From: Methanobacteriota archaeon
Lineage (GTDB): Archaea; Thermoplasmatota; Thermoplasmata; UBA10834
NCBI GenBank assembly: GCA_020347565.1
Contig: CP070732.1
Coordinates: 514,681-578,680 of the forward strand
Direction: 5' to 3'
DNA: 64,000 bases
Within the stretch, counting starts at the first letter, position 1. The number at the start of each line of letters is the position of its first letter. The translations under genes and the position numbers were made by a program. Shown here piece after piece: positions 7,223 to 35,748 of this stretch. The notes under the pieces were generated by a model. The model was not told where the DNA came from. It did not search any database and saw only the letters and a program-made list of their open reading frames with translations.

Positions 7223-7232
7223 TCTTCACCCG

Positions 7233-7245
7233 TTCCATCCGAAAC
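7233..7245 (+). promoter_or_regulatory. ORB-like element 1 (ttccatccgaaac)
   Basis: Matches the archaeal mini-ORB core TTCCAnnnGAAAC seen at Orc1-bound origins. Confidence 0.4.
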
Positions 7246-7316
7246 CCGGCCTCTTGGACCACCGCTTCCAGTGAACCGTACGGAACAACACCATGGCCCC
7301 TCAGTCACAGGGCACT

Positions 7317-7334
7317 TCCATGGGAAACCAAGGG
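7317..7334 (+). promoter_or_regulatory. ORB-like element 2 (ttccatgggaaaccaagg, followed by gggg)
   Basis: TCCAnnnGAAACCAAGG with a downstream G-string. It sits in the loop of a short inverted repeat (agggcac...gtgccct). Confidence 0.5.
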
Positions 7335-7439
7335 GTGCCCCTGACCCATGTCTGATAACGTCGTCAACGCTCTTTTATTCGTACTTGTGCATTCACAACT
7401 GATGCTGGCAGTCGATAATCTCCGAAATTTCGAGGCTGC

Positions 7440-7500
7440 GGAAAAAATGAATTCCCCGAATAATATTAACCATTAAGTAGACACTTTGTCATTTCCAACT
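7440..7500. other. AT-rich candidate DNA unwinding element
   Basis: The sequence gaaaaaatgaattccccgaataatattaaccattaagtagacactttgtcatttcc is markedly AT-rich relative to the ~60% GC background. Confidence 0.35.
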
Positions 7501-7501
7501 T

Positions 7502-7519
7502 CCTTGGTTTCGAGTGGAC
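7502..7519 (-). promoter_or_regulatory. ORB-like element 3, in inverted orientation (reverse complement tccactcgaaaccaagga)
   Basis: Reverse complement shares TCCAnnnGAAACCAAGG with element 2; the two form an inverted pair around the AT-rich block. Confidence 0.5.
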
Positions 7520-7589
7520 TGTGCGAGCACGACTCCACGAGAAGTCTGGGGGAGGGGAAGGACTTTTCAGTGAGTCCGGGGGCAGTTCG

Positions 7590-21699: not shown

Positions 21700-23169
21700 T
21701 CATCCGGAGAAATCCTCGACCCAGCATTCGCCGGTACCCAGGTGCACCATCGGCACCTTGGCCGGGTCGGGCGTCTGGTTGTGCATGCGCTGGAAGGCTG
21801 TCTGGGACTGCCATGCGGAGGCGTTTATCAGCTTGATGCCTCTGTACTCATCGAGTTCGCAGACATGGACATGCCCCGTCACGAAGATGTCAGGGACGGT
21901 GTCGATCACAAGATAGTCCTTCTGCTCGGGTGCGATCGGCGTCTTGCCCCCGTAGACGGGCGCGAGATGTCTCCTCTTAAGCATCTCCTTCATGGCCTCC
22001 TGCGGGTTTGTGTAGTTCAAGCGTCTCACGCCCGAGTTGAAGTCGTCCATGCTCTTTCCGTGGTACGCCAGTATCACCCGTCCTTCGATCTCCAGATAGC
22101 AGGGGTTGCCCACGAACTCGATGTTCGAGTCGAACATCTCCCTTATGTCGTTTGGGAGCGCTGGCTGAGGTTCTGCGAGCCTCACGGCGTCGTGGTTCCC
22201 CGGCATCGCGACGATACTGATCCGGTCCGGGAGCTCCTTCACCGCCTCCGAGAGGGCCAGGTACTGTCCGTACAGGTCATCCAGCCTGAGCTCTTCCTCC
22301 TGGCCAGGGTACACCCCTATTCCGTCGACGAGGTCTCCTGGCATCACTACGTATCTGATATCCTTCGCGACGGGATCCCTGCCGAGCCAGTCGACGAGTC
22401 TCTTCCACGCCTTGTCCAGGAAGGTGTTGCTGCCGAGGTGGATGTCCGAGACGAACGCGACAATCGACTCGGAGCCGTTCGGGGCCATGCCGCTGCTGAG
22501 GGGCACGTCTGGTCGAATCACGTCCTTCGCGACGACCAGCTCTCCGTCTCTGTTGAATGACCCGACCACTCCGAGGATTTCATCCTTAAGGAAGGCTTCG
22601 TTCATCCTCGCCGAACCCTTCATGACCAGCACCATTATCTTGTCCGTCTCGTCCTCCATCTCGATGATCGTGTGTCCGTTCTTCGTGGTATGGGAGTCGT
22701 TCACTATTCCGACGAACCGCAGGTCCCTCTCCAGCTTCTTGACCCGTGCGATCGGCAACTGGCCCGCCAGTTCCCTCCTCTTAGAGAGCATCTTCCTCAG
22801 TGTCAAGTACCTGTCCTTGAATAGCTTGGCGAAATCAATCACGTTGCCAACACAGGTGGAGTTGCCAGTTATGTCCTTGATGACTTTCACCGTGCCGGGC
22901 TTCAACCGTCCCGCTCCTTGCTCGGCAGCCTTATCTGCCGCGCCCTCGACGCCTGGCAAGACATCATCGGCTCCACGGATGATGTCGTCGTCGCGGCGTG
23001 CGTACCCCACTATGTCTTCCTCCGTCAGTATGAGAGCTCTGTTCCCAGGGTCTTCGACCATTCGGTCGACGCACTCGTCGGCGTCCGGGAGCCTCATCAG
23101 GGCGTCGATTGCCTTCGGTTCGAGCAGTATGCCGACTTCTCCGAGCCTGCCCAGAATCCGCTTTTTCAT
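21700..23169 (-). CDS. polB: DNA polymerase II (PolD) small subunit DP1
   Basis: N-terminal OB region plus a calcineurin-like phosphoesterase domain (VSDIHLGS, MPGNHD, GHVH motifs); 489 aa. Confidence 0.9.
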   Translation of the reverse strand: MKKRILGRLGEVGILLEPKAIDALMRLPDADECVDRMVEDPGNRALILTEEDIVGYARRDDDIIRGADDVLPGVEGAADKAAEQGAGRLKPGTVKVIKDITGNSTCVGNVIDFAKLFKDRYLTLRKMLSKRRELAGQLPIARVKKLERDLRFVGIVNDSHTTKNGHTIIEMEDETDKIMVLVMKGSARMNEAFLKDEILGVVGSFNRDGELVVAKDVIRPDVPLSSGMAPNGSESIVAFVSDIHLGSNTFLDKAWKRLVDWLGRDPVAKDIRYVVMPGDLVDGIGVYPGQEEELRLDDLYGQYLALSEAVKELPDRISIVAMPGNHDAVRLAEPQPALPNDIREMFDSNIEFVGNPCYLEIEGRVILAYHGKSMDDFNSGVRRLNYTNPQEAMKEMLKRRHLAPVYGGKTPIAPEQKDYLVIDTVPDIFVTGHVHVCELDEYRGIKLINASAWQSQTAFQRMHNQTPDPAKVPMVHLGTGECWVEDFSG

Positions 23170-23669: not shown

Positions 23670-24427
23670 TCGGTGTCGCCTCCCCGTCCTTCTGCTTCGT
23701 TCCGTTCCCGGAGATGGTCGGAGAGGTTGCAGAGCGGTTCGACTTGTGGGAGATACTGGTCGAGGGCAGACATTCGTTCGAGACCTGCTACGATGAGATA
23801 TCGGACGCGGTCGCCTCACACGACATCGAGTTCCAGGCGCACGCGCCAATGACGGATGTGAATCTCGGGAGCATGTACGAGCCAATGAGACGCGCGTCCG
23901 TCGCCGAAGTGCGGAATACGATAGAGGCGTGCGGCAGGTTGGGCATCTCCCTTGTGACAGTCCATCCGGGATTCGTCCAGGGGATCGCCTTCCTGAGAAA
24001 GAGTGTAATTTGCGAGCAGACGAGACGCTCGCTCGTCGAACTCGCTTGCGTCGCCGAGGACAACGGCGTTGTTCTGGCGGTCGAGAACATGCCGACTGGC
24101 ATCAACGCGACATGCACGAGCGCGGAGGAGTTGCTTGAGGCGGTGAAAGGCACTTCGCTGGGATTGTGCTTCGACATGGGCCATGCAAACACCGCAGGTC
24201 AAATCGACGAGATGTTGGAGCACGTAGCGCTTTTCAGGAACGTGCATCTACACAACAACGATGGAACCTGGGACCAGCACAATGCGATTGATGAAGGAAC
24301 CGCGGACCTCCCGGCAGCGGTGGCGCGAATCCGGCATGGGGGATATGCGGGCAGCTACGTGATCGAAGCCACGGACCTCGACAGTGCCGTCGGGAGCAAG
24401 CAGATGTTGGAAAGGCTACTTGTATGA
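23666..24427 (+). CDS. Sugar-phosphate isomerase/epimerase (xylose-isomerase-like TIM barrel)
   Basis: ATGA overlap with the upstream gene. VHPGF, LAVENMP and CFDMGHAN motifs of AP endonuclease 2 / TIM-barrel isomerases. Confidence 0.7.
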   Translation: MIGVASPSFCFVPFPEMVGEVAERFDLWEILVEGRHSFETCYDEISDAVASHDIEFQAHAPMTDVNLGSMYEPMRRASVAEVRNTIEACGRLGISLVTVHPGFVQGIAFLRKSVICEQTRRSLVELACVAEDNGVVLAVENMPTGINATCTSAEELLEAVKGTSLGLCFDMGHANTAGQIDEMLEHVALFRNVHLHNNDGTWDQHNAIDEGTADLPAAVARIRHGGYAGSYVIEATDLDSAVGSKQMLERLLV

Positions 24428-25807
24428 CCTGCCACAGCCAAGGCAGACGAGCCCTCTCTCGCCGTCCAGTCTGGCACTCGTAGAACCGCAGAAGGAACAG
24501 ACGAAGAACCCTGCAGCCGAGGTGCGACGCGTCCGCTCTTCCTCATGGGACTGTTGAGGCGAGTGCTCCGGGATCTGGCCGAGGGAGTCGCTCCTCGTGT
24601 AGCCCCCAAGGCTCACCACGGCAGGCGGCATCGCAGCGGCCGTCACGGCGACTTGCGTCGGCTTCTCACCTTCGAAGAACAGACGCCCGGATAGGAACTC
24701 TGCTATCCGGATGGAGAAGTATATCGTGAAGAAGAAGCCGAGACCGACCCAGAGGAGGATGCCGATGGCCACGATCATCTGGACGGCGAATGAAGCATCG
24801 AACACGACCAACGGCGTCGACAGATAGTCGAAGGAGAAGTGCAGCATCACGGCGGCTGGGAGGCCGTGCTTCAGGAACATGTACCCGAACGCCACCCCGG
24901 CTATGGACGCTGGGAAGATTTTCCAGAGGCCCCAGGCCTCGAAATGGGCGAAGCCGAATACCAAGGAGGAGATGATGACGAGCGCGGTCTCCCCCCACAT
25001 TATCTTGATCCCTCCTCCAAACACGTACTTGTGTGGCTTCCTAGCCTCCATGCCCCGCGCTTGGTCGACGACTATCAGAGGCAGCCCCAAGAGCAGGACT
25101 CTGACGATCAGCTCCTCCCAGACCGATGCATTGGCTAGAAGGAACAACAGCTCCCAGTCCGCCATGCTCTCGGTCGGAGCCACGGGCTCGTCGCCCATCG
25201 CCATCAGGAGCAAGACGATGACCGTGTTGATGAACAGCACGGCGAACATCAGGGCACACATATCGAAGAACGGGCTGTGATCTCTTGGCGTCCCCCGCAT
25301 GGTGATTTCGTTCAGGAATTTCCTCGCGCTCTTCAGGACGAGCCATCCGGCAGACGCGAGAATGGCACACACGAGGAAGATGTACCACGCCTCGAGCGCC
25401 GCGCCGGAGATTGTCACTATTGGAATGAGAGCGACGAGCGCGATATGGAGTGAGTAGGAATGGTTTCCGATCTCTGGCGCGACGATGTCGACGCCTATTA
25501 TGAGCACACCCAGGCATACCGCGAGATATGCCGCGAAGGTGAGCATGAATGCTGCGGAGGCGGCCCTACCGAACCTGCGCCAAGGAAGTGTCGACCGACG
25601 TACACGTTGGTAGTACTGCATTCTCAGCAGATGTGAGGGCGGCGGCGCTGTTGACGGGCCGAATCGGCCGTCCGGCTGGCTCGAAAGGGACGGTTTGAGG
25701 GCGCCGCACGAAGGACAGTAGGTCCCCATACCGGGAATGATTGCACCGCAGCGCATGCACATTTCATCTCGCGGGGATCTTCCAGTTGAAGGGGTGTTTG
25801 TGGACAC
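24416..25807 (-). CDS. CPBP-family intramembrane metalloprotease (CAAX protease / Abi-like) flanked by N- and C-terminal zinc ribbons
   Basis: EELIVR and FGFAHF...H motifs inside a multi-TM core. N-terminal CMRCG...CPSCG and C-terminal CSFCG...CLGCG ribbons. A minus-strand TATA at 25831-25840 sits about 26 bp from the ATG at 25807. Confidence 0.7.
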   Translation of the reverse strand: MSTNTPSTGRSPRDEMCMRCGAIIPGMGTYCPSCGALKPSLSSQPDGRFGPSTAPPPSHLLRMQYYQRVRRSTLPWRRFGRAASAAFMLTFAAYLAVCLGVLIIGVDIVAPEIGNHSYSLHIALVALIPIVTISGAALEAWYIFLVCAILASAGWLVLKSARKFLNEITMRGTPRDHSPFFDMCALMFAVLFINTVIVLLLMAMGDEPVAPTESMADWELLFLLANASVWEELIVRVLLLGLPLIVVDQARGMEARKPHKYVFGGGIKIMWGETALVIISSLVFGFAHFEAWGLWKIFPASIAGVAFGYMFLKHGLPAAVMLHFSFDYLSTPLVVFDASFAVQMIVAIGILLWVGLGFFFTIYFSIRIAEFLSGRLFFEGEKPTQVAVTAAAMPPAVVSLGGYTRSDSLGQIPEHSPQQSHEEERTRRTSAAGFFVCSFCGSTSARLDGERGLVCLGCGRSYK

Positions 25808-26063
25808 AAACCGAGATTACGGCCCTGAGCGTATATTACGGTATTCCCCGTTGCATTGCGGCTTGACCTGGGCCGAAGGGCCGCGGCACCATAGGGCCGT
25901 CATCTGATCCGAAGACGAGCGGCTGCGGCGAGTATTCTATCAGTTTCGATAACGGGTGCTCGACATGTGCGCTCATGCGATTGCCGCAGAGAACTAGTTC
26001 ACCGCCGCGACACGCGGTTAAACGGCGTGAAGTGCTGGATTTCGCAGAATCCGCCGCCGCAAG

Positions 26064-26073
26064 AATATATATT
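26064..26073 (+). promoter_or_regulatory. TATA box (aatatatatt)
   Basis: AT-rich box about 25-30 bp upstream of ATG candidates at 26099 and 26117. Confidence 0.4.
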
Positions 26074-26116
26074 GCATCAAATTATTCACGATGACCTAAT
26101 GAACGGAGGCGGCCAA

Positions 26117-26365
26117 ATGGACGAACAGCAGAACACTAAGGTGCGATTCGAGACGCTTAACGCCGAAAAGATACCCTTTGGAAAGAACAACTTCTTGGAG
26201 GTCGCCAGGAAGAAGGCAATAACGGACGAGGGCGTTAGTGAGTTCATATCGGTATCTAGGGGATACTATCTGCCGGACGGGAGCGAGAAGTACAAGAAGT
26301 CGATAACCATCCCTGACGATCCGGACATAAAGACCTTCATCACGGACAAGATCACAAAGCTGTAA
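26117..26365 (+). CDS. Small low-GC protein (82 aa) with weak similarity to chromosomal protein MC1 (uncertain)
   Basis: GGAGG lies 8 nt upstream of the ATG at 26117. The gene is visibly AT-richer than its neighbours. The FGKNNFLEVARKKAITDEG stretch is reminiscent of the MC1 FTGKQPRQAALKAANRG motif, but the protein is not strongly basic. Confidence 0.5.
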   Translation: MDEQQNTKVRFETLNAEKIPFGKNNFLEVARKKAITDEGVSEFISVSRGYYLPDGSEKYKKSITIPDDPDIKTFITDKITKL

Positions 26366-26412: not shown

Positions 26413-26934
26413 TTACTGTGCCTTCAGAATCAGTTCTAGATAAGTATCCTTCACTTTCTCTACAAGCCGTAGCTCCTTCTCGGCCCTGTGAATCAGCAGC
26501 TTCGCCCTCGAAGGATCCTCAGTCATAAGCTCGATTTCCACGAATTGTCCGAGTCCTTCGATGTCGTCGATGTCCACTCTCAGCAGATCGAGGGCGAAGG
26601 ATACGCGCCTCTTCTTCACACAGACGATGTCTACGAACCCCAACCTTTTCAGGACTCTGTCCATTGTCAACCAATCGTCGATTCTGAGCGTGAGCTCCTC
26701 TCTAGCCTTTGCGCTGGAGCCAGTCATTCGCGGTCCTTTATAGGTCTGTTCAGAGCCGTCGTCTCGCTTCCGCAGCCTCAACGCCTCGTCAGTCTCCTTG
26801 AACCGCCTGCCGGGATGCGCGTAGTAGGTGTCCTCAATGATCTCATCGCATAGCTTTCTGGCGCCGAGCCTGCCAAGGGTCGTGACAATGCCGTCGTTGC
26901 CTGGCGACCTGTACTTCATCTCGACCTCGAGCAC
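26413..26934 (-). CDS. CYTH-domain protein (class IV adenylate cyclase / triphosphate tunnel metalloenzyme)
   Basis: MLEVEMKYR opening with the ExExK motif and an acidic/basic tunnel pattern, 173 aa. Confidence 0.7.
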   Translation of the reverse strand: MLEVEMKYRSPGNDGIVTTLGRLGARKLCDEIIEDTYYAHPGRRFKETDEALRLRKRDDGSEQTYKGPRMTGSSAKAREELTLRIDDWLTMDRVLKRLGFVDIVCVKKRRVSFALDLLRVDIDDIEGLGQFVEIELMTEDPSRAKLLIHRAEKELRLVEKVKDTYLELILKAQ

Positions 26935-27000
26935 GGAACGCCCGTAGCATCTTCCCGTTGATTAAGCTAGCTGGTGTACGAACCCGTCAGCCCTGTACCA

Positions 27001-27012
27001 AAAGGTATAAGT
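27001..27012 (+). promoter_or_regulatory. BRE/TATA-like promoter motif aaaggtataagt
   Basis: The same 13-mer context (aaaaggtataagt) recurs at 55562-55574 upstream of another gene. Confidence 0.35.
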
Positions 27013-27055
27013 CTCGACTTGAAGATTGACGACAACCCAGTTGGCAGGTGGTCTT

Positions 27056-27464
27056 CATGGAGCAACCGGAAAGGGCGATCAAGCTCAGGAAGGACGAACT
27101 CGTCGAGATAAAGAGGCTCTACGAGACCGTTATGACTTTCGCATCTCACGGGATGTTCTACAGGAGCGGCAGGGTCATCGGCGCGAGGATAATCAGGACG
27201 GCCGGCTCCGACTTCACGAAGGTACGCGATGCCCTGATCCGCGAAGGGTGGGTTACGGACATCGAGTTCGACGGCGACGTCGTCACAGCTACGGGCTCGG
27301 TTGAAGCATCCTCCTCGGACGCGCCGAGCTGTCACTTCCTGCGCGGTATACTGGCCAAGGTGTTCGAGGAGCGAACCGGGAAGGACGTCTACTGTCACGA
27401 GCGGAAATGCCTGTCTAAGGGGGACGAGAAATGCGAGTTCGTCATAGACACGGAGGTGTTGTGA
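27056..27464 (+). CDS. V4R-domain protein (predicted small-molecule or hydrocarbon-binding)
   Basis: Conserved Cys pattern CHFLRG...CHERKCLSKGDEKCEF of the 4-vinyl-reductase domain. An alternative GTG start at 27048 is possible. Confidence 0.7.
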
Positions 27465-27465
27465 G

Positions 27466-28140
27466 ATGACCAGGAAGAGCACAGGCGTCCCCGGCCTCGA
27501 CAGCATGCTCCAGAACGGCTTTCCGTTCCCCTCGTCGATCCTGGTGGCGGGCGAGCCCGGCACTGGCAAGACGACGTTCGCCGTCCAGAGTCTGTTTCAC
27601 GGCGCGATAGATGGAGAGAAAGGGTTGTACATAACCGCCATATCCGAGCCTCAGTGGCTGGTTCAGAAGTTCCTGTCCTCATTCTCTTTCTACGATCAGC
27701 AGCACGTCGAGAAGGGCATGGTCAACTTCATCGACCTCGGCCCGAGCATCGCGAAGAACCCGGGCGACATGCTGGATATCATCAAGAAGAAGATTGAGCA
27801 GTTCGAGCCGGAGAGGATTGCCATAGATCCGATCACTCCGATGACCGACCTTCTGCAATGGCGAGGCGAGACAAGGGAGTTCATGCACGAGTTGTTCGCG
27901 TACCTGAAGGCGTTCAACAGCTTGGTGATTATAACCGCAGAGATGTCCTATGATGACATATCACACAGCCAAGAGTCATACATGGTCGACGGCGTGATAG
28001 TGCTTTCCTATCCTGAGGAGGAGAAGGTCAGGCGCAAGTTCCTCGAAGTACTCAAGATGAGAGGTACGAAGCACACGACGGGCCGGCAGCTGATCGACAT
28101 CACGGACGAGGGGCTGGCCGTCCAGGCCGGGCTGAGGTAA
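27466..28140 (+). CDS. KaiC-like / RecA-superfamily ATPase, single domain
   Basis: GVPGLDSML...VAGEPGTGKTTFAVQ Walker A, Walker B VIITAE; 224 aa. Confidence 0.8.
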   Translation: MTRKSTGVPGLDSMLQNGFPFPSSILVAGEPGTGKTTFAVQSLFHGAIDGEKGLYITAISEPQWLVQKFLSSFSFYDQQHVEKGMVNFIDLGPSIAKNPGDMLDIIKKKIEQFEPERIAIDPITPMTDLLQWRGETREFMHELFAYLKAFNSLVIITAEMSYDDISHSQESYMVDGVIVLSYPEEEKVRRKFLEVLKMRGTKHTTGRQLIDITDEGLAVQAGLR

Positions 28141-28148
28141 GACATTGT

Positions 28149-28658
28149 ATGAGCAACGACGAGAACCCCATCCTGAGAGAGGGTACGTCATATCTCTTCA
28201 TGGATAGGGACGTGTCCGAAGCCTACGAGCGCTTCAAGAAGCTCTTGGCAGAGGGGAGGAGGGGGCTCGTCATCGCCAGGACGCATCCCAGCCGTCTGCA
28301 GCAGTCGCACGCGCTCGACTGCCCGATAATGTGGATCGCGAAGAGCACTAAGGCGGCGAGCGGCGTGCTGAGCCTGGAGCCGACGCGTCTCATGAAGATA
28401 CACAGCACGATATCCGACTTCGTCAAGGCGACCAGAGGCGCGGTCGTCATACTTGACGGGCTGGAGTACCTGATAACGGAGAACGGCTTCTCACCCGTGA
28501 TGAAGGCCATACAGCTCACGAACGAGGAGGTCGCCATGAACGGCGCGTTCCTCCTCGTGCCGATAGACCCGCGCACGATGGAGACGCAACAGCTGGGCTA
28601 TCTCGAGCGCGAGTTCACGCTCCCGGACGAGAACGGTAGACGTATACGTTCGACCTGA
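28149..28658 (+). CDS. DUF835-domain protein
   Basis: The pattern GxxGLVIARTHPSRL...PIMWI matches my recollection of DUF835. The gene is tightly linked, with an 8-bp gap, to the KaiC-like gene. Confidence 0.55.
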   Translation: MSNDENPILREGTSYLFMDRDVSEAYERFKKLLAEGRRGLVIARTHPSRLQQSHALDCPIMWIAKSTKAASGVLSLEPTRLMKIHSTISDFVKATRGAVVILDGLEYLITENGFSPVMKAIQLTNEEVAMNGAFLLVPIDPRTMETQQLGYLEREFTLPDENGRRIRST

Positions 28659-28713
28659 GCCCGGCCGAAACCAAGCTCTGTTTTTTCTATTAGCTCGCAC
28701 CTTAGGCTTCTGT

Positions 28714-29247
28714 ATGCAGAACGAAGTCCCTCTGGGCCGCGTCCACGTAATCACGGGCCCGGGAAAGGGGAAGACCACATCGGCCTTCGGCCTGGCGATG
28801 CGGGCGGCTGGCCACGACCTTCGCGTCTGCATTGTCCAGTTCATGAAGACGGGTGATGTCACAGGCGAAGTCATAGCGGCGGAGCGGCTGAAGAACGTGA
28901 GCGTCGCCCAGTTTGGAACAGGCAGGTTTGTGGGCGGGTCGGGGGCGTCGGACGATGATCGCAGGAGCGCGCGGAAGGCCATGGCCCATGCGAGGAAGCA
29001 GGCCAGTAGTGGCCGATGCGACCTTCTCGTGCTCGACGAGGTCAATGTAGCCGCCTTCTTCGGTCTAGTGTCCGCTCAGGAGGTGATAGACTTGCTCGAG
29101 GCGCGGTCGGAGGGTCTCGAGGTGGTACTGACTGGGCGCAACGCTCCGGACGAGTTCATCGAGTACGCGGACTACGTGTCTCATATCGACACCGTGAAAC
29201 ACCCTTTCGACGAGGGCGTTTCCGCCAGAAAGGGCGTCGAGTGGTGA
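28714..29247 (+). CDS. cobO: Cob(I)yrinic acid a,c-diamide adenosyltransferase (CobA/CobO/BtuR type)
   Basis: ITGPGKGKTTSAFGLA P-loop and VQFMK motif; 177 aa. Confidence 0.8.
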   Translation: MQNEVPLGRVHVITGPGKGKTTSAFGLAMRAAGHDLRVCIVQFMKTGDVTGEVIAAERLKNVSVAQFGTGRFVGGSGASDDDRRSARKAMAHARKQASSGRCDLLVLDEVNVAAFFGLVSAQEVIDLLEARSEGLEVVLTGRNAPDEFIEYADYVSHIDTVKHPFDEGVSARKGVEW

Positions 29248-29256
29248 GCCCTCCGG

Positions 29257-30387
29257 TCAGCCAGTTTTCTGCCTCAGAAACATGAGGTACCGTATCTCCT
29301 CGGCCGTGAACACGGAACACCTCTTCAGCTCCTCTCTGTCTCCGTCTCTCAGCAGGCGCAGCACGAGCGGCTGGCCTCTGCTCATCAGATAGACTCTGCG
29401 GAACGCCTCAGCCTCTATCTCCGAATTCCCGAGCAGCCGTCTGGCACTGTCCTCATCGAGGCCCTTCACGCGTATCTCGCGAACGGTTCCTGAGTCCACA
29501 TGCCGCTTCTGATAGAACCAGTTGTATGCCGGCAGATCCTCATGTGCAGTGACGATCAGTTTGCCCTCGCTCTTGTGGCTGACGAACGAGGAGAGGAGCT
29601 CGACCACTCCTTCGCTTGCTGTGTGGTAGTCATCGAACACTACAGCCACTCCAGGGACGGCCAATGCGGAATCGACGTCTGAGACGTCAGGCTGAATCCC
29701 ACGTGCGAATCCGATCACTCTTGACTCTATGTCTGCTGCGCCTGTGCGTTCGCTGACGGCGATCCAGAGCACGTCGACGTCCTCCTGTCTCTCGACGAAC
29801 TCTCTGGCCAGAGCCGTCGTACCGTAACCTCTCCCGCCGAGGATAACCATCGCCTGCGAGTCGGAGTCCATGAAGCCCTCGAGCGCCTCTAGCTCTCGCT
29901 CTCGACCGTAGAATTCCTCGTGCGGCGGGGCGTCCGTCAGGTCTCTCTGTGCTGTTCTGTGCCTGTCCTTCAGCTCGATTACCCCGTCCTTCATGCGCGA
30001 GATCAGGCCAAACGCTCGGCGCCTGCCGAACATCTCCTCGAGGGCCGCCCCTTCCATCTCCTCCTTGACACCTTCGCGCGATACCAGGATTCTGGACGCG
30101 CGCAGGTCGTTCCAGATCGCCTCGGCCCTTCTGAACCCTTCCATGCTGACGGCATATACGCTCATCCTGCGATTCCTGTCGGCGACTCTTCCCCTGAACT
30201 CCTCGACGAGCCCTTCCTTGATGAGAGTCCTCACAGCTCTGGGGACATGGGTCCTCGATATGCCAACCCCTTCGGCGATGCCGACCTGAGTGGTCTCCGA
30301 GGGAAACTCCTCGACAGGTGTGTCCGTCGCGAAGCGCGATAGATGCAGAAGCACGCGGTCGTTGACACTGAGCTGACCTGGCATCAA
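29257..30387 (-). CDS. wHTH plus Arch_ATPase-like (AAA+) protein with a degenerate Walker A; putative transcriptional regulator
   Basis: N-terminal winged HTH (VGIAEGVGISRTHVPRAVRTLIKEGLV). Central FYGRERELEALEGF...ILGGRGYGTTALA, where the Walker A Lys is replaced (GYGTT). Transcribed divergently from the giant pilin-like gene. Confidence 0.6.
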   Translation of the reverse strand: MMPGQLSVNDRVLLHLSRFATDTPVEEFPSETTQVGIAEGVGISRTHVPRAVRTLIKEGLVEEFRGRVADRNRRMSVYAVSMEGFRRAEAIWNDLRASRILVSREGVKEEMEGAALEEMFGRRRAFGLISRMKDGVIELKDRHRTAQRDLTDAPPHEEFYGRERELEALEGFMDSDSQAMVILGGRGYGTTALAREFVERQEDVDVLWIAVSERTGAADIESRVIGFARGIQPDVSDVDSALAVPGVAVVFDDYHTASEGVVELLSSFVSHKSEGKLIVTAHEDLPAYNWFYQKRHVDSGTVREIRVKGLDEDSARRLLGNSEIEAEAFRRVYLMSRGQPLVLRLLRDGDREELKRCSVFTAEEIRYLMFLRQKTG

Positions 30388-30568: not shown

Positions 30569-33500
30569 ATGAACTTCGAACGGTGCAGAAGAAGGCTTGG
30601 CTCGGACAGAAGCGGCGTCTCGGAAGTCGTCGGGAACATACTCATCCTTTTGATCACGGTGGTTCTGTTCAGCTCCATTGTTGCCTACGTGAATCAGATA
30701 CCCGTTCCCGAGGCCGGCACGAAGGCCGACTTCGCCGCCACGATTTCCTTCGAGGTCGGCGACCCGACCATGGCGGACCTGACCGTCACTCACGCGGGCG
30801 GGGAGGTGCTGCGAGCGGCCGATACGGCGGTCATACTCGAAATCGACAACACGTCCCAATTCCACAAGCTATCTGAAGATGAGGATTTCTCCTATACGAC
30901 TTGGAGCACCGGAACTGATTGGACGAAATCCTTCGCCGTGCCTTCCGCCGCCAGCAACGTGGTCGTGAGCGTGATAGACCTCGACAAGTCCAGAATCGTG
31001 TGGACCAGCCAGGTCTCAGGAGGAGCCGGGGGAACTCCTCCCATCATACTTCAGAGATACGCTGATTCAGAGATACTGTCTCCGAGCGCCGACCCCGTGA
31101 AGAAGGATGATACGTTCTCCGTGTTCGTGAAGGTGATAGACCTCGACAATGACCTGAACACCGTCTGGCTCGACGTCTCGGAGCTGCCCGGAACCCCTGA
31201 TGGCGTGGCGGACGACATCACAGCTGACGGGTGGTATAGGTTCGATTTCTCGGGCATAACGGATGATGTGACGGAGATCGACGGCAAGCTTCTCAAGATA
31301 CATGCCACGGACTCGGCGGGACATGAGACCGTGTCGAGCTACAGGCTGTCAGTGACGATCCTGCCTACTGACACCGAGATAAACTACTACGAGGATCCCT
31401 TCGAGGGAGGACTCCCCAGCTACATCACTTGGATAAGCGACGGACAGGGCTTCGGCATTTACCACGAGGATGGAACGAGCGGGAATGCGGACGTTACAGC
31501 TACTAATTCGACCTTCGTCAAGGACGAGATGGTCTTCATAAGGGTGGCTAGCCTGAGGCTGGCCAACATCCAGAGCGTGAATTCGATGACGCTGACGGAC
31601 ATGCGAACGGGTTACACGCATGTCCCTGCCTTCAACACCAGCCTGTGCTCTTCATCGGCTCCGTTCTATCCATTCACCTCATCGGGCGGCGCGTTCGTTT
31701 ACGAAACCCAGTTCGACACGTCCCCGCTTCCGCCCGGTGCGTATGCGGTGGCCATAACTCTCAAGAGCTCAGGTGCCGTGTTCCAGACCGTCGCCACCCT
31801 GGTCGTGTATCAAGAAGGCTCGTCGGTAGGTTTCACGCCTCGCATTTGGACTTACAACAGTGAAGGCGAGGATTGGGGCTCGAAGACGACCCCGTATGAC
31901 GTGTCCGGGGGAGCGACCAGTAGGGTTTATGTGAGGGTCAGTGTCCAGGACGCTACACTGATCCCCTCCCCTCCGAATGTCGATGACATCAGAATCGTCG
32001 ACATGCGAGGGGACACACAACTTCATGGCTCACCGCCGTCGGGCGATATGTTGCCTGCGTGGACGGTCACAGCGGTGCCAATCGACAATCAGACATACAA
32101 CTTCGAGATCAACCTTCGGCTGAACAACGGCGATCAATGGATTGGCGGGACGAACGCGTATACCCTGAAGATATCCAGGTTCTCCGACGCCAACGAAGGA
32201 ATATACTCGCTCTCCACCATGATCTATGTTAGCGCGTCGATGGCACGGGCGGATTTCTTCGTCGGCGGAGCCGGGTATATGACTGGTACGTCAAATTTCA
32301 TCGACCCGCAGTACCTGTTCCAGATACAGAACAACAACTTCTTCACCCAGCGTGTCCTCTACGACTACTCCAACGCCCCCAGCGCGGCTGACAACTACGC
32401 CGTTAGTGCGCTCGCCCTTGGAGATCTCGACGGCGACGGCGACAAGGATATCATCATGGGCCAGTACGGGAGCGAGAAGCTCTACTATCTCGAGAACAGC
32501 TTGAATACCTTCGGCTCGTGGCAGGAAGCCTCCACGATAACGCGTCCGAGCGGCGATGGCGGTGGCGACATAACCTGGATTGCCGCTGGCGATACGAACG
32601 GCGACGGCGACGTCGATTTCGCCTATTGCACGGAAGACGATGTAGTCGTCATAATGAACAACACATACGGGTCGACGGGCTCAGTGTGGAAGGACTACGG
32701 CAGCTCGAACGGTGGCGTCCTTAAGCTAGACATCCGTGACATGACCGGCGACGAAAGGGGCGACCTCATCGTCCTCGCCGGCGGCCTCGTGAGGGTCTAT
32801 GACCTTCTGGACTGGGATGCTGAATCACCGATAGCCACGCTTCCCGATACAGGCAGTGCGAGCATCAAGGACTTCGACATCGGAGACGTCGACGGGGACG
32901 GTCACCTCGACATAGCAACCGTGGATGACACTTCCACGTCTAGCGATCTGTCCGGCACGCGAGTCAGCTACTACTACGATAACCCATCGCCGATAGAGAG
33001 ACTCCTGATCGGCACCGCGCCGGATGTCGATGCCGGGCAATCGAGCGGTCTGATATCGTACACCGAGACCGTAGACGGCCAGGCATTGGTGATGAGGGAG
33101 AACACGACCGGCGAGATCGCCCCGGGCAACCTCAGTGCCGACATCACGCTGGACACCTTGACAGATAGCCTCGACCAGACCTTGACCGTCAGAGCCAAGG
33201 TCAGCGCTGGAGGAACGGAGGGCTTCTATGTCTGGTATTCTGTGTCAGGCGTGTACTTCACCCCGCTGATATACATCCCCCCGACGACGACGGCGTACAC
33301 GGACTTCTCGGTGCGGCTGCCTCCAACAGTGGCTGGTCTCTCGATAGAGCTCCGGTTCACCGACTCGATCGCGACGGCCGATAGCAAGACACCGGCCGAA
33401 CAGCTGTACCTCGATTATGTGGCAGTGCTGACAGACCTGTATGGAGGCTACGACCCCATCGACGCCCCGATCGTCGATTATTCGTCCGACTATGAATGCG

Positions 33501-34009
33501 TGAGGATCGGCAACTTGAATGGGGATTCGGACCCGAGCGACCTCGGACTGGAGATAATCGTTGCCAAGGATTCCGTCGGTGATGGTCCAGGAGACGAGGG
33601 CGTCTGGAAGGCGTACAACCGCACAGGCGAAGGCGCATCCGAAAACTGGTCGCCCTTGGCAGGCTGGACGGATTCCGATATCACTTTCTACTGCAGGGGA
33701 GATGACCAGATTGACCTTCACAGCTCCATGTCCAACGATGAGAACCCGATCGAGTCGATCCTGACGACGAGCTCCCCCAGACTGTTCCACGTCGTTGACG
33801 TGAACGGCGACGGATACGACGATGTGATCGTGGTGAACACGACGGTCAATGAGGATCTCACGTCTCAGGTGGCTTTGTATCTGAACATGGAGCCCGAGCC
33901 CAGCCACTGGTGGTACCTCGTCGTCAAGGACGTCGCGGCTGCCTTCAACATCGCGGATGTGCGGGGCGGCATGACGTACCTGCTGGTGGACAACCTGATA
34001 TCGGAGTGA
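30569..34009 (+). CDS. Giant surface protein (1146 aa) with an archaeal type IV pilin-like N-terminus and FG-GAP (integrin-alpha-like) repeats
   Basis: N-terminus RSG|VSEVVGNILILLITVVLFSSIVAYV matches the archaeal Pilin_N (DUF1628) class III signal and hydrophobic helix. Several DxDGDGxxD Ca-binding FG-GAP motifs (LGDLDGDGDKDII, AGDTNGDGDVDFA, IGDVDGDGHLDIA, VDVNGDGYDDVIV). Confidence 0.8.
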   Translation: MNFERCRRRLGSDRSGVSEVVGNILILLITVVLFSSIVAYVNQIPVPEAGTKADFAATISFEVGDPTMADLTVTHAGGEVLRAADTAVILEIDNTSQFHKLSEDEDFSYTTWSTGTDWTKSFAVPSAASNVVVSVIDLDKSRIVWTSQVSGGAGGTPPIILQRYADSEILSPSADPVKKDDTFSVFVKVIDLDNDLNTVWLDVSELPGTPDGVADDITADGWYRFDFSGITDDVTEIDGKLLKIHATDSAGHETVSSYRLSVTILPTDTEINYYEDPFEGGLPSYITWISDGQGFGIYHEDGTSGNADVTATNSTFVKDEMVFIRVASLRLANIQSVNSMTLTDMRTGYTHVPAFNTSLCSSSAPFYPFTSSGGAFVYETQFDTSPLPPGAYAVAITLKSSGAVFQTVATLVVYQEGSSVGFTPRIWTYNSEGEDWGSKTTPYDVSGGATSRVYVRVSVQDATLIPSPPNVDDIRIVDMRGDTQLHGSPPSGDMLPAWTVTAVPIDNQTYNFEINLRLNNGDQWIGGTNAYTLKISRFSDANEGIYSLSTMIYVSASMARADFFVGGAGYMTGTSNFIDPQYLFQIQNNNFFTQRVLYDYSNAPSAADNYAVSALALGDLDGDGDKDIIMGQYGSEKLYYLENSLNTFGSWQEASTITRPSGDGGGDITWIAAGDTNGDGDVDFAYCTEDDVVVIMNNTYGSTGSVWKDYGSSNGGVLKLDIRDMTGDERGDLIVLAGGLVRVYDLLDWDAESPIATLPDTGSASIKDFDIGDVDGDGHLDIATVDDTSTSSDLSGTRVSYYYDNPSPIERLLIGTAPDVDAGQSSGLISYTETVDGQALVMRENTTGEIAPGNLSADITLDTLTDSLDQTLTVRAKVSAGGTEGFYVWYSVSGVYFTPLIYIPPTTTAYTDFSVRLPPTVAGLSIELRFTDSIATADSKTPAEQLYLDYVAVLTDLYGGYDPIDAPIVDYSSDYECVRIGNLNGDSDPSDLGLEIIVAKDSVGDGPGDEGVWKAYNRTGEGASENWSPLAGWTDSDITFYCRGDDQIDLHSSMSNDENPIESILTTSSPRLFHVVDVNGDGYDDVIVVNTTVNEDLTSQVALYLNMEPEPSHWWYLVVKDVAAAFNIADVRGGMTYLLVDNLISE

Positions 34010-34729: not shown

Positions 34730-35748
34730 CTTCTCACCTTCTTCTGGCGACGGACGATGAGCTCCATGAGGTCTTCAGAGCGGTCGGCCCGTCTGAGTTC
34801 GTCCTTCGACACCAGTGGCGTGCCCTCGATGGCCTTCACCTTGCTGCCCTCCTGGACGATGATGACGGATTTCTTCTCCGTCACCCTGGAGAGGTCGCCC
34901 ACGACCCTGGCCTTCCTCTCGACGAGCTTCTCGTCCCCGCCTATGCCGGTCAGGAGCAGCTCCTCCTCGCGAGCCACGGCGTCGAACGGACATCTCCTCG
35001 TGGGGAGGACGAGATAGCCGATCTCGCGCAGCATGTCGAATATCTCCTTGTTCGCCCCCTCGGCCCTCTCGAGCGCCTTCATGACATCGGCCATTTCCGA
35101 TGTGAATTCGAACGGGTTGAGCGGCACCACGATCGGCTCGTCCAGGAACTCCTCTATCCTCGCCGCGATTTCCACCATCGCTCCCATGCCCGCCTCGTAC
35201 ATCTGTATCGCTTTGCGCGAGACGCCAGCGGCCTCCGCAAGCGTCCCCAGGGAGATGCTCTTGGTCTCTCTGACGCTTCGGAGCGTCTCGCCGTCGACAC
35301 GGACGTACAGCCCGCCCGGTGCGGCGTACACGAGCGGGGGCAGCCCCTCTACCATCAGCGCCTCGAACGATGCGGCGGTGAGTATCGGCAGGCCGAAGCG
35401 GGAATACAGTATCCCATCCTCAAGCTCCGCCGTACTGGAATGCAGGCCGACTACAATCGCGCTCGCGTCGAGCGTCGCGGCAAGCGCCCGAAGGTCGTCC
35501 GCGTCGCTGTGCGATAGCGAATCGATGTTCGACAGCATCTTGAGAACGAGGAGCTGATCGCCCTTCCTGGCGATTGCATCGAAGCTTACGGACCTGAGGT
35601 TGTGCGGCTCGGTCACGAAGAAGCCGCACTCGGCGAGGTCCGCCCTCACCCTCGCTATGAGCTGTTCCCTGTTAGCCGTGACGGCTCTCGTCTTCGGTCT
35701 CGTTGTTGGCATGGGTAGTGTCAAGGTAGCAGCTAGCCCTCGTGTCAC
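34726..35748 (-). CDS. Archaeal HTH (XRE-like) putative transcriptional regulator, COG1395-like
   Basis: Central HTH SLGTLAEAAGVSRKAIQMYEAG. The ~340-aa architecture is typical of this conserved archaeal family. 4-bp overlaps on both sides. Confidence 0.55.
   Translation of the reverse strand: MTRGLAATLTLPMPTTRPKTRAVTANREQLIARVRADLAECGFFVTEPHNLRSVSFDAIARKGDQLLVLKMLSNIDSLSHSDADDLRALAATLDASAIVVGLHSSTAELEDGILYSRFGLPILTAASFEALMVEGLPPLVYAAPGGLYVRVDGETLRSVRETKSISLGTLAEAAGVSRKAIQMYEAGMGAMVEIAARIEEFLDEPIVVPLNPFEFTSEMADVMKALERAEGANKEIFDMLREIGYLVLPTRRCPFDAVAREEELLLTGIGGDEKLVERKARVVGDLSRVTEKKSVIIVQEGSKVKAIEGTPLVSKDELRRADRSEDLMELIVRRQKKVRR

Follow-up and report, generated by a model that had tools for sequence, protein, structure and literature searches.

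The window analysed here, a 64,000-nt stretch of archaeal DNA, carries three co-directional open reading frames on the plus strand (27057-28658) that encode a V4R protein, a KaiC-family ATPase and a DUF835 protein. Across lineages it is the pair of V4R and KaiC genes that has been conserved as a unit, and DUF835 is a Thermoplasmatota-specific third gene. With moderate confidence at most, we lean towards the view that the operon is self-contained and specifies a regulatory ATPase complex made up of three proteins, of the KaiC-centred type seen in archaea.

Layout and expression signals of the locus

The three genes of the module are:

27057..27464, plus strand: V4R/Bet3-fold protein, UCE92042.1, 135 aa (Pfam V4R, E 3e-15)
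27466..28140, plus strand: single-domain KaiC-family RecA-like ATPase, UCE92043.1, 224 aa (Pfam KaiC, E 6.9e-45)
28149..28658, plus strand: DUF835 protein, UCE92044.1, 169 aa (Pfam DUF835, E 4.4e-29)

The genes lie head to tail. A single nucleotide separates the V4R stop codon (TGA, 27462-64) from the next ATG (27466), and 8 nt separate the KaiC stop codon (TAA, 28138-40) from the ATG at 28149; both the order and the gaps are as originally predicted. The start of the V4R gene had been placed at 27048 and had to be moved to the ATG at 27057, because this ATG and an AGGTG 6 nt upstream of it are kept in five genomes while the GTG at 27048 falls within the Shine-Dalgarno site; public gene calls also give 135 aa. 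All three domain calls of the original prediction were borne out by profile searches, each exceeding its Pfam gathering score: V4R (PF02830) with 56.5 bits against 31, KaiC (PF06745, residues 5-220 of 224) with 153.6 bits against 26.6, and DUF835 (PF05763, profile positions 7-136 of 136) with 101.4 bits against 33.1. GenBank labels the V4R and KaiC genes of the source MAG just 'hypothetical protein', a label that can now be improved.

The following expression signals accompany the genes:

26997..27013, plus strand: putative archaeal BRE/TATA promoter, ACCAAAAGGTATAAGTC, a near-invariant block in the window and loci L002-L005
27046..27050, plus strand: Shine-Dalgarno-like AGGTG for the V4R gene, in five genomes, 6 nt before the conserved ATG
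27452..27458, plus strand: Shine-Dalgarno GGAGGTG for the KaiC-like gene, within the end of the V4R gene, read from the sequence
28134..28138, plus strand: Shine-Dalgarno-like GAGGT for the DUF835 gene, overlapping the KaiC stop codon, read from the sequence
28681..28693, plus strand: T-rich element, TTTTTTCTATTAG, between the DUF835 and CobA genes

The first of these lies about 45 nt upstream of the ATG at 27057 and varies at a single base (G/T/A, at the G before TATAAG) among the window and L002-L005, in an otherwise poorly conserved intergenic region, which suggests a promoter. At the other end, the TTTT(T)CTAnT of the T-rich element is kept in five genomes, some 22 nt upstream of the CobA ATG. 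This element is probably the oligo-T terminator of the operon, the TATA-like promoter of a near-leaderless CobA transcript, or both. Conserved promoter and T-rich end enclose exactly the V4R, KaiC and DUF835 genes; with a Shine-Dalgarno site at every junction, they strengthen the earlier inference of one transcript. From the V4R stop to the KaiC start the spacing is always -4 to +1 nt, in all lineages, which suggests translational coupling.

The module is flanked by these genes:

26413..26934, minus strand: CYTH/CyaB-like gene (Pfam CYTH 3.8e-29; TIGR00318 over its cut-off)
28714..29247, plus strand: ATP:corrinoid adenosyltransferase CobA/CobO (Pfam 1.3e-59)
29257..30387, minus strand: wHTH protein with a STAND/AAA_16-like domain (weak HTH and AAA_16 matches; degenerate P-loop GGRGYGTT)
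30569-34009: 1146-aa protein with an archaeal type IV pilin N-terminus and FG-GAP repeats

Two of these had been named correctly beforehand, the CYTH gene (111 bits for TIGR00318 against a cut-off of 58) and the pseudo-ATPase wHTH gene, whose P-loop lacks the Lys. The CYTH gene had been called convergent, but it is a minus-strand gene that starts at 26934 and is divergent from the V4R gene, with which it shares a 122-bp intergenic region. CYTH neighbours the module in 70 of 72 clade loci and in none of the more distant lineages; CobA is adjacent in 53/53 clade loci and two genes away in L087; the wHTH gene is conserved within the clade only (42/42 loci, median identity 51%). Since their linkage is confined to the close clade, the three are weak guides to the function of the module. 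No conserved output component was found among the neighbours; the RHH, NikR and HTH genes seen elsewhere are inconsistent between lineages. PADLOC defence models gave only P-loop-level matches (E ~1e-3), and an Rfam search was negative.

Conservation of the V4R-KaiC pair

The original prediction described a three-gene module recurring in archaea. Its synteny holds in related genomes and in metagenome contigs of the same clade, 80 of which share the whole neighbourhood. There the V4R gene is followed by the KaiC orthologue in all 71 evaluable loci and DUF835 comes next in 59/59. These counts, and the small size of the V4R subfamily, for which 1.84 billion representative proteins gave just 48 clusters (50% identity, E<=1e-10), establish that the arrangement is not due to chance. 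The module genes are also the slowest-evolving of the neighbourhood within the clade, with median identities of 86% for KaiC, 77% for V4R and 72% for DUF835 compared to 61% for CobA, 53% for CYTH and 51% for the wHTH protein. The locus hence shows the conserved linkage of a KaiC-like ATPase with sensor and iKaiC genes by which KaiC-centred modules are recognized. All carriers of the module are uncultured MAGs.

Distant lineages were sampled thinly, by nine exact-protein look-ups; the output of genome and metagenome scans consisted mostly of generic Walker A pattern matches or close relatives. Of nine independent contexts, eight contain the V4R-KaiC pair between unrelated flanks, in Thermoplasmatota lineages, Bathyarchaeota and Altiarchaeales. 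It is the triplet that does not recur as widely as predicted: DUF835 is present in four of the nine contexts, all Thermoplasmatota-like, and its position is elsewhere taken by Cdc6/Orc1, a coiled-coil protein, an unknown protein, or nothing. A 169-aa gene upstream of the Bathyarchaeota V4R gene was considered as a diverged DUF835 and rejected (BLASTP E 6.9, no Pfam match).

The identities of V4R and KaiC proteins drop in parallel from lineage to lineage (paired values of 86/74, 67/50, 66/44, 63/41, 59/37 and 50/36%), which indicates that the two genes have been co-inherited as a unit. An HMM search of all fetched loci detected neither V4R nor DUF835 beside KaiC paralogues (38-41% identity, L007-L010) or bacterial KaiC homologues; the pairing is therefore specific to one KaiC orthologous group. 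One Thermoplasmata lineage (L085/L091) keeps the KaiC orthologue (59% identity), but neither a V4R nor a DUF835 gene lies next to it. In this lineage the ATPase apparently works without them, or both are encoded elsewhere in the genome. V4R and KaiC-family domains also occur in a single protein, P0479, in which a KaiC-family domain with a degenerate P-loop is fused to two V4R domains. A second protein, P0460, gave the impression of an iKaiC-V4R fusion by eye, which neither Pfam nor hhalign supported.

Three proteins and their possible interplay

The ATPase finds its best PDB sequence matches in KaiC (1e-46) and, lower, in the single-domain proteins PH0284, PH0186 and SSO2452. Eighteen orthologues (57-86% identity) share an invariant Walker A motif (GEPGTGKT), D121 of Walker B, S60-E61-P62, KMRGT and a C-terminal GLR. 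E61, which the HMMER alignment places at an offset of 1-2 residues from KaiC E77/E78, would be the catalytic acidic residue after beta-2. The equivalents of the KaiC CII phosphosites S431 and T432 are S/G/A and an invariant Tyr; as these sites are not conserved, a KaiC-style phospho-switch is unsupported. Neither is the protein a circadian KaiC: it is a single domain of 224 aa and scores 81 bits with TIGR02655 (cut-off 546), and an ORF and Pfam search of the neighbourhood of the module returned no KaiB or KaiA. It also stays under every cut-off of the curated NCBIfam archaeal KaiC subfamilies (TIGR03877/78/80/81), the best being KaiC_arch_3 with 114.7 bits against 249. Structurally characterised homologues of the ATPase form hexamers.

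Homologues with the V4R/Bet3 fold are dimeric, and in the window protein a predicted Cys/Glu zinc knuckle would shape a hydrophobic cavity. The AF2 model of the V4R protein (pLDDT 83.4) was matched by Foldseek to MJ1460 (2osd/2oso), Thor-TRAPPC3 (7yh3) and MopR/PoxR/DmpR; the matches to 2osd/2oso (2e-5), 7yh3 and 5kbi have TM scores of 0.46-0.60 and a high RMSD (11-12 Å) that probably stems from a long N-terminal helix modelled straight. The protein is thus predicted to adopt the two-layer alpha/beta fold of MJ1460, MopR and TRAPPC3. Its residues C92, E115, C118 and C126, near-universal in the family (39-40 of 40 representatives), align with MopR C155, E178, C181 and C189 and form a predicted zinc site. 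MopR E178 we take to be the fourth zinc ligand of that protein. The three cysteines C155, C181 and C189 are its described zinc ligands (PMC9556785). Thor-TRAPPC3 and PoxR bind zinc alike, in a study that concludes on a ligand-binding role of Asgard TRAPP/V4R proteins (PMC10933270). An extra cysteine, C113, lies two residues before the Glu ligand in 26/40 representatives; a third of the family has Val or Ile at this position. A G38-x3-G42 motif in helix 2 is conserved as well, and a G-x3-G motif of the V4R/Bet3 fold has been described (PMC2253512). Among NCBIfam models the protein matches MsvR best, in its C-terminal V4R part (E 6e-9); this match covers only the last 45 profile positions at 35.9 bits against a cut-off of 220; no HTH was found in the V4R protein.

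The third protein is more than the DUF835 entry named in the original prediction: the domain call stands, and the predicted fold makes it a P-loop-less KaiC/RecA-like domain. Its AF2 model (pLDDT 85.5, pTM 0.83) has its best Foldseek PDB matches in FlaH/ArlH (4yds, at the top), PH0250 (2ekd), PH0284 (2dr3) and KaiC, with E 2e-5 to 1e-3 and TM 0.53-0.65, and the sequence lacks the GxxGxGK[ST] motif. Both features agree with the label iKaiC (inactivated KaiC-like) given to DUF835 in PMC5847659. Searches with the single sequence and with a profile brought up no relative with a solved structure, and hhalign of DUF835 against KaiC detected no link (E 0.31) with shallow alignments (relatives of at least 67% identity plus two at 36-38%). 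We draw the relationship to KaiC from the predicted structure and the literature.

In the complex that we tentatively favour, the stand-alone V4R/Bet3-fold protein would be the sensor and the single-domain ATPase, with its catalytic motifs intact, the transducer, regulated in trans by V4R. The DUF835 protein would be a partner or adaptor lacking catalytic activity of its own, docking on the ATPase ring or co-assembling with it. How V4R binds the ATPase may depend on whether its cavity holds a ligand, or on the state of the Zn-thiolate site; a change in binding could shift the nucleotide state of the ATPase, to be read out via DUF835 and other partners. We infer here that a complex forms, in which direction regulation runs, the oligomeric state, what the signal and the output are, and the 'signalling' role of the module. 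The 'ligand-sensing ATPase switch' proposed originally is still the best reading, given the intact Walker A/B and KMRGT motifs, the V4R/Bet3 fold with conserved zinc ligands and the P0479 fusion, which lends indirect support to a physical V4R-KaiC complex. Against it count the L085/L091 orthologue with neither partner gene next to it and the absence of a conserved output component among the neighbours. The ATPase is, moreover, conserved to a very high degree, which is more usual for housekeeping proteins than for an accessory sensor.

The signal could be redox chemistry within the same architecture, a possible but doubtful variant in which the V4R cysteine cluster (C92, C113, C118, C126) would form an oxidant-labile Zn-thiolate or disulfide switch controlling the ATPase. 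The MsvR match speaks for it, since the cysteines C206, C232 and C240 of the MaMsvR V4R domain govern redox-dependent DNA binding (PMC3729527), as do the frequent C113 and the likely anaerobic sediment or groundwater hosts suggested by MAG and sample names. However, the aligned MopR cysteines bind a structural zinc ~10 Å from the ligand pocket (PMC9556785), and the zinc residues of Thor-TRAPPC3 and PoxR in the same region tether sheet to helix and thereby create the cavity (PMC10933270); C113 is dispensed with in a third of the family, and no thioredoxin or peroxiredoxin genes are linked to the module. That the pair is instead a RadA/RadB-like housekeeping factor in DNA replication, repair or the cell cycle is unlikely. 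What speaks for it is that KaiC proteins are members of the RecA superfamily, that the ATPase has weak RadA, RadB and DnaB matches in NCBIfam, and that its conservation across phyla is unusually high (50-59% identity). Replication genes also lie nearby: Cdc6/Orc1 follows KaiC by 5 nt on the same strand in L088-L090, PCNA is two genes upstream in L085/L091, and upstream of the module in the window come the PolD small subunit, at 4 kb, and, at 20 kb, Cdc6 with a putative origin. Yet such a gene is an operon partner in only one of the nine contexts, the constant partner V4R has a small-molecule-binding fold, no dedicated DNA-binding domain was found in the V4R, KaiC or DUF835 protein, and the match to KaiC in the PDB (1e-46) exceeds those to RadA/RadB in NCBIfam (1e-4 to 2e-3) by ~40 orders of magnitude, a comparison across two different databases. 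In a further reading, which we consider a long shot, the pair is no accessory sensor but an ancient, slow-evolving switch common to Thermoplasmatota, Bathyarchaeota and Altiarchaeales, in which a Bet3/TRAPP-fold protein loaded with a hydrophobic, lipid-like ligand directly controls a P-loop NTPase and links membrane or lipid status to a core process. Replication initiation would be an example, because the Cdc6 operon partner in one lineage hints at it. If this were true, the 'Bet3-fold regulates NTPase' logic known from eukaryotic TRAPP complexes would have a precedent in prokaryotes.

Two other explanations build on the gene neighbours. The V4R domain takes its name from the BchJ 4-vinyl reductase family, and the protein might carry a tetrapyrrole while the ATPases work with the adjacent CobA adenosyltransferase. 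CobA/CobO indeed sits directly 3' of the module in the window and in the clade, and two genes downstream in the separate lineage L087; a weak BchJ match (TIGR02019, E 0.003) and the CobA structures 1g5r and 4hut among the DUF835 fold matches point the same way. We nevertheless regard such corrinoid or tetrapyrrole handling as highly improbable: CobA has its own conserved promoter-like element and is placed after the T-run, an opposite-strand gene separates it from the module in L087, the other six contexts with the V4R-KaiC pair lack CobA, and no further cob or cbi genes are adjacent. The fold match ranks below KaiC and ArlH and reflects only the common P-loop/RecA-like architecture. It is improbable, too, that the module regulates a surface structure as ArlH does the archaellum motor, with the neighbouring giant type-IV-pilin-like FG-GAP protein as target. 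FlaH/ArlH is the top structural match of DUF835, the 1146-aa protein has a type IV pilin N-terminus, and large surface proteins flank the KaiC orthologue in L082, L085, L091 and L095; but such giant proteins are very common in these genomes, the ATPase scores 39 bits on the ArlH NCBIfam model against a cut-off of 215, and no ArlI/ArlJ or PilB/PilC genes are adjacent. As a conserved partner the giant FG-GAP proteins were rejected, being non-homologous between lineages and differing in their signal peptides.

Relation to known systems

Archaeal KaiC-like ATPases are abundant, and it has been proposed that they are the principal hubs of signalling in archaea; to our knowledge, they are biochemically almost entirely uncharacterised. 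The locus reduces such a system to a compact and unusually conserved core of V4R protein (135 aa) and ATPase (224 aa), with an optional dead paralogue (169 aa). All three proteins are small and soluble-looking and could be expressed and reconstituted, and the module therefore offers a practical way to study communication between a sensor domain and a KaiC-type ATPase, and the role of iKaiC/DUF835 proteins.

The NtrC-family phenol regulators MopR, PoxR, DmpR and XylR provide the best mechanistic analogy. Their sensor (A) domains share the V4R fold with the window protein, their Cys/Glu/Cys/Cys zinc site aligns with its own, and the V4R module is functionally upstream of an oligomeric P-loop ATPase, as is predicted here. 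In contrast to these bacterial proteins, in which V4R acts in cis on an AAA+ sigma-54 activator domain with a DNA-binding output, the window module has a separate V4R protein, a RecA/KaiC-type ATPase and no attached DNA-binding output. Control of the ATPase by V4R would resemble the gating in cis of MopR, DmpR and XylR, and also the way in which KaiA and KaiB read or set the state of KaiC. With cyanobacterial KaiABC the module has in common the KaiC-family RecA-like core with KxRGT and co-encoded small partners, which in cyanobacteria read or set its state and may do so here. It differs in having a single domain instead of CI-CII, no KaiA or KaiB, and S/G/A and Tyr for S431/T432, and nothing suggests rhythmicity.

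Individual components have relatives of their own. MsvR, the closest curated match for the Cys-bearing V4R part, is archaeal as well, and its V4R cysteines are functionally important, but it has an N-terminal HTH and binds DNA directly whereas the window protein is V4R only. ArlH/FlaH shares the single-domain KaiC-like fold with the DUF835 model; unlike DUF835, which has no P-loop and no arl genes nearby, it is an ATP-binding product of the arl operon, with ArlI as its docking partner. TRAPPC3/Bet3 and Asgard TRAPPC3-like proteins have the V4R/Bet3 fold, partner a P-loop NTPase-based switch and, in Thor-TRAPPC3, hold zinc via four Cys. TRAPP, however, is a GEF scaffold for Rab GTPases and the partner here is a RecA-type ATPase, and the parallel is only an analogy.

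The closest framework is that of Makarova, Galperin & Koonin (mBio 2017), cited in PMC5847659, who reportedly propose archaeal KaiC-like ATPase signalling 'hubs' with inactivated partners (iKaiC: DUF835, MEDS). The module resembles these hubs in placing a single-domain KaiC-family ATPase beside a small sensor-type protein and DUF835/iKaiC, and in the evidence, which is genomic only. It differs in that a stand-alone V4R is constant and DUF835 optional, and in a KaiC orthogroup that falls under all curated subfamily models. The literature searched, which excluded the 2017 census, yielded no V4R-KaiC pairing. The module is a real and well-conserved example of the little-understood archaeal KaiC-based signalling modules rather than a system of a novel type; it can be placed within the framework of Makarova et al. 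and overturns no current view.

Gene arrangement and putative transcription unit

The contig that holds the window is 1.97 Mb long and belongs to a MAG of an uncultured 'Methanobacteriota/Euryarchaeota archaeon', whose relatives carry the labels Thermoplasmata or Thermoplasmatota. The original prediction of V4R, KaiC and DUF835 domains in three head-to-tail genes was confirmed by Pfam matches above the gathering score and by same-strand genes with stop-to-start spacings of 1 nt (V4R/KaiC) and 8 nt (KaiC/DUF835). The module and its flanks comprise:

26413-26934 (-), CYTH/CyaB-like gene (Pfam/NCBIfam profile match)
27046-50 (+), Shine-Dalgarno-like AGGTG before V4R
27048/27057-27464 (+), V4R ORF (Pfam V4R, E 3e-15)
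27452-58 (+), Shine-Dalgarno-like GGAGGTG before the KaiC-like gene
27466-28140 (+), KaiC-like ORF (Pfam KaiC PF06745, E 6.9e-45)
28134-38 (+), Shine-Dalgarno-like GAGGT before DUF835
28149-28658 (+), DUF835 ORF (Pfam DUF835, E 4.4e-29)
28714-29247 (+), CobA/CobO (Pfam/NCBIfam profile match)
29257-30387 (-), wHTH protein with a partial AAA_16/STAND-like region

The proposed span of 27048-28658 holds for the ORF positions but not for the V4R start: ATG 27057 and an AGGTG 6 nt 5' of it are kept in five genomes, GTG 27048 falls inside this ribosome-binding site, and the protein has 135 aa in GenBank UCE92042.1 and in independent gene calls. The CYTH gene does lie upstream, but it starts at 26934 and reads along the minus strand, and is therefore divergent from V4R, not convergent as first described. 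The anticipated wHTH regulator with a pseudo-ATPase is real, its degenerate P-loop (GGRGYGTT) lacking the lysine.

When the CYTH-V4R intergenic region was aligned with those of four related genomes (L002-L005), the spacer proved variable overall except for the near-invariant block ACCAAAAGGTATAAGTC (26997-27013), a putative archaeal BRE/TATA element of textbook form ~45 nt 5' of the V4R ATG. A T6 run 3' of DUF835 belongs to a conserved element, TTTT(T)CTAnT (28681-93), ~22 nt ahead of the CobA ATG; it can be read as the operon end, as the promoter of a near-leaderless CobA transcript, or as both. Together with the Shine-Dalgarno-like site before each gene, these signals fit the single transcript originally proposed, and we infer one operon. 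Also invariant in the 122-bp CYTH/V4R intergenic region (26935-27056) is GATTAA (26961-26966; minus-strand reading TTAATC), which lies about 27-32 nt 5' of the CYTH start and suggests a TATA-like promoter of a leaderless CYTH transcript.

Several other features of the window were recorded. The small ORF 25967-26365 (+) has no match in Pfam or NCBIfam; over the C-terminal ~90-120 residues its identity in L002-L005 is 67-82%, above that of the adjacent CYTH gene. Its true start is probably an internal Met ahead of DEQQNTKVRFETL, and its FISVSRGYYLPDGSEKYKKSITIP segment recalls, by eye, PC4/YdbC-type ssDNA-binding proteins. A 463-aa membrane protein (24416-25807, -) has an Rce1-like CAAX/CPBP protease domain between N- and C-terminal zinc-ribbon motifs, an unusual combination. 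The DNA polymerase D small subunit (DNA_pol_E_B + Metallophos; 21700-23169, -), 4 kb upstream of the module, and a Cdc48/VCP-type double-AAA ATPase (35745-37934, -), 7 kb downstream, are ordinary housekeeping genes. Divergent from the wHTH gene, a 1146-aa protein (30569-34009, +) combines FG-GAP repeats with the N-terminal signal of archaeal type IV pilins (Pilin_N); both genes are kept in L002-L005, at 43% and about 51-55% identity, possibly as a regulator-adhesin pair with no relation to the KaiC module. A Cdc6/Orc1 gene (7521-8825; Pfam Cdc6_C, Cdc6_lid, AAA) follows a 300-bp intergenic region (7222-7520) flanked by an inverted repeat, TCCATGGGAAACCAAGG / CCTTGGTTTCGAGTGGA (arms 7317-7333 and 7502-7518), whose core is similar to the ORB or mini-ORB origin boxes of archaea. 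GC dips at 6001-8000 (0.50 vs about 0.60), and region 7222-8825 is probably the chromosomal replication origin.

Conservation across lineages

Relatives were sampled by scanning genomes with an alignment of KaiC and metagenomes with one of V4R, and by exact-protein look-ups of eight KaiC homologues at increasing distance. In the window's own clade (80 metagenome contigs, V4R 72-85% identical) the entire neighbourhood is fixed, in agreement with the synteny expected in related genomes. This fixity says little about function; by median identity the module genes are the slowest-evolving.

Table. Neighbourhood in the window's own clade (evaluable loci; median identity)
V4R: query gene, 80 loci; 77%
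KaiC directly after V4R: 71/71; 86%
DUF835: 59/59; 72%
CobA: 53/53; 61%
CYTH: 70/72; 53%
wHTH: 42/42; 51%

Distant lineages, with flanks unrelated to those of the window, provide the informative comparison.

Table. Gene order in other lineages (loci; KaiC identity; order)
L006, L097; 63-67%; V4R-KaiC-DUF835
L087; 66%; V4R-KaiC-DUF835
L088-90; 63%; V4R-KaiC-Cdc6/Orc1
L093-94; 62%; V4R-KaiC-uncharacterised 393-aa protein
Bathyarchaeota L082-84, L095-96; 57-59%; V4R-KaiC only
L085-86, L091-92; 59%; KaiC alone
Altiarchaeales L011; 50%; V4R-KaiC-coiled-coil protein

Counting the own clade as two contexts, the V4R-KaiC pair occurs in 8/9 and DUF835 in 4/9, so that the predicted recurrence of KaiC-like ATPases with both partners in archaea stands for V4R but only partly for DUF835. 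In every pair sampled the V4R stop lies between a 4-nt overlap with and a 1-nt gap from the KaiC start, and KaiC and V4R identities to the window fall together (86/74, 67/50, 66/44, 63/41, 59/37, 50/36%). These genomic patterns argue that the pair is the conserved, co-inherited, translationally coupled unit and DUF835 an optional addition specific to some lineages. Among the fetched loci, neither V4R nor DUF835 was found beside KaiC paralogues (38-41% identity) or bacterial KaiC homologues.

In one Thermoplasmata lineage (L088 5690-6820, L089, L090) a Cdc6/Orc1-family gene (376 aa) follows V4R-KaiC on the same strand after a 5-nt gap, where the window has DUF835. A convergent 97-99-aa protein (MSYAIFSVEKTQASKINKILKDDLISRQSI...; no Pfam family) lies directly downstream of the KaiC orthologue (L085 5716-6015, -; L091 4705-5004, -) or of DUF835 (L087 6298-6591, -) in two otherwise non-syntenic lineages (37-39% identity). 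It has no homologue in the window and may be a further partner of this KaiC orthogroup.

Predicted folds and sites of the three proteins

Only the last 50 residues of the V4R protein are spanned by the Pfam match. Modelled at full length with AF2 (pLDDT 83.4), it matches M. jannaschii V4R protein MJ1460 (2osd/2oso, E 2e-5), thorarchaeal TRAPPC3 and the sensor domains of MopR, PoxR and DmpR, and is therefore, by predicted fold, a complete stand-alone V4R/Bet3 protein. HMMER aligns C92, E115, C118 and C126 with MopR C155, E178, C181 and C189, where Glu178 is reportedly the fourth zinc ligand. The family is small (full-library HMMER search of 1.84 billion representative proteins: 215 at E<=1e-3, 48 at E<=1e-10); 39-40/40 full-length members keep these four residues and 26/40 an extra cysteine, C113. 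In MopR the zinc ligands C155, C181 and C189 form a site called structural, ~10 Å off the phenol pocket (PMC9556785), and in Thor-TRAPPC3 four Cys hold Zn 'similarly to PoxR', tethering sheet to helix and forming a cavity (PMC10933270).

In an alignment of 18 orthologues of the KaiC-like protein, Walker A GEPGTGKT, the Walker B aspartate D121 within DPITP, S-E-P after strand 2, KMRGT (corresponding to K(L/F)RGT of KaiC) and a C-terminal GLR are all invariant. PDB sequence searches returned KaiC proteins best (1e-46), with single-domain archaeal PH0284, PH0186 and SSO2452 matching too, and the protein scores below the NCBIfam cut-off for every curated archaeal KaiC subfamily, ArlH, RadA and RadB. 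Positions aligned with the KaiC CII phosphosites S431 and T432 hold S/G/A and an invariant Tyr, a pattern that does not support a KaiC-type Ser/Thr phospho-cycle; in this the domain rather resembles a CI-type ATPase. By analogy with the family, it would form a hexamer with ATPase activity.

A motif check of the DUF835 protein revealed no Walker A, and searches for sequence relatives of solved structure gave none. Its AF2 model, rated good (pLDDT 85.5, pTM 0.83), has a five-stranded alpha/beta core, and its best Foldseek matches are FlaH/ArlH (4yds, 1.8e-5), PH0250 (2ekd) and PH0284 (2dr3, TM 0.65), with KaiC, RecA and Rad51 paralogues also among them. This predicted fold agrees with the label 'DUF835 (iKaiC)', which Galperin et al. 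(2018, PMC5847659), citing Makarova et al. (2017), use for a KaiC-like ATPase domain that has been inactivated. When shallow alignments of DUF835 and KaiC were compared profile against profile, the relationship was not recovered; the sole segment aligned, GRRGLVIARTHP with KaiC GEKGLYITAISEP, has a score that is not significant and in our reading is consistent with the same strand order and a deleted P-loop.

Among V4R homologues in the representative library, the 605-aa protein P0479 joins an N-terminal KaiC-family domain (Pfam 41.5 bits vs cut-off 26.6; hhalign to the KaiC orthologue profile E 2.8e-5, residues 6-251) with a degenerate P-loop, SEHPATNKG, to two V4R domains; it also has a DUF5943 region. 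That both kinds of domain occur in one chain speaks for their direct physical cooperation.

Possible mechanism and relation to known systems

The best-supported reading, which we hold to be slightly better than an even bet, is a sensor-ATPase-adaptor complex. The V4R protein would act as sensor, either of a hydrophobic ligand or of its own Zn-thiolate site and that site's state, and modulate, in trans, the nucleotide state of the KaiC-type ATPase, while DUF835, a dead paralogue, would dock on or within the ATPase ring as an adaptor. Against this stand the ATPase found alone in one lineage, its housekeeping-like conservation, and the lack of a conserved output gene in the lineages sampled. A variant in which the signal is redox, not ligand, is unlikely, yet it stays alive because the closest curated match of the V4R protein is the V4R part of MsvR, whose conserved V4R cysteines, similar to those seen here, control redox-dependent DNA binding (PMC3729527).

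The remaining alternatives draw on neighbours kept in no more than one or two lineages. A role in replication or repair, to which Cdc6 as operon partner in L088-90 and PCNA, PolD and Cdc6 near module genes elsewhere would point, seems improbable; regulation of a pilus or archaellum, suggested by the FlaH-like fold and the giant pilin-like protein next door, is decidedly so, and corrinoid handling, with the adjoining CobA in its favour, is scarcely credible. PADLOC and Rfam searches were negative.

The locus fits a framework proposed in 2017 by Makarova et al., in which KaiC-like ATPases reportedly have sensors and iKaiC proteins as partners, and V4R and DUF835 domains were already known; it is no surprise to the specialist. 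Literature text searches, which did not extend to the full 2017 paper, found no description of the V4R-KaiC pair. What is added is a conserved V4R-KaiC core in three archaeal phyla with DUF835 optional, a predicted DUF835 fold that matches the iKaiC label, and the existence of a KaiC-family/V4R fusion. The locus is compact and tractable enough to serve as a model for a question still open. The action in trans proposed for the module's V4R parallels the V4R-containing A domain of MopR, DmpR and XylR, which gates an ATPase in cis, and also KaiA and KaiB acting on KaiC; the adaptor role of DUF835 may be likened to that of Rad51 paralogues or of the second KaiC domain.
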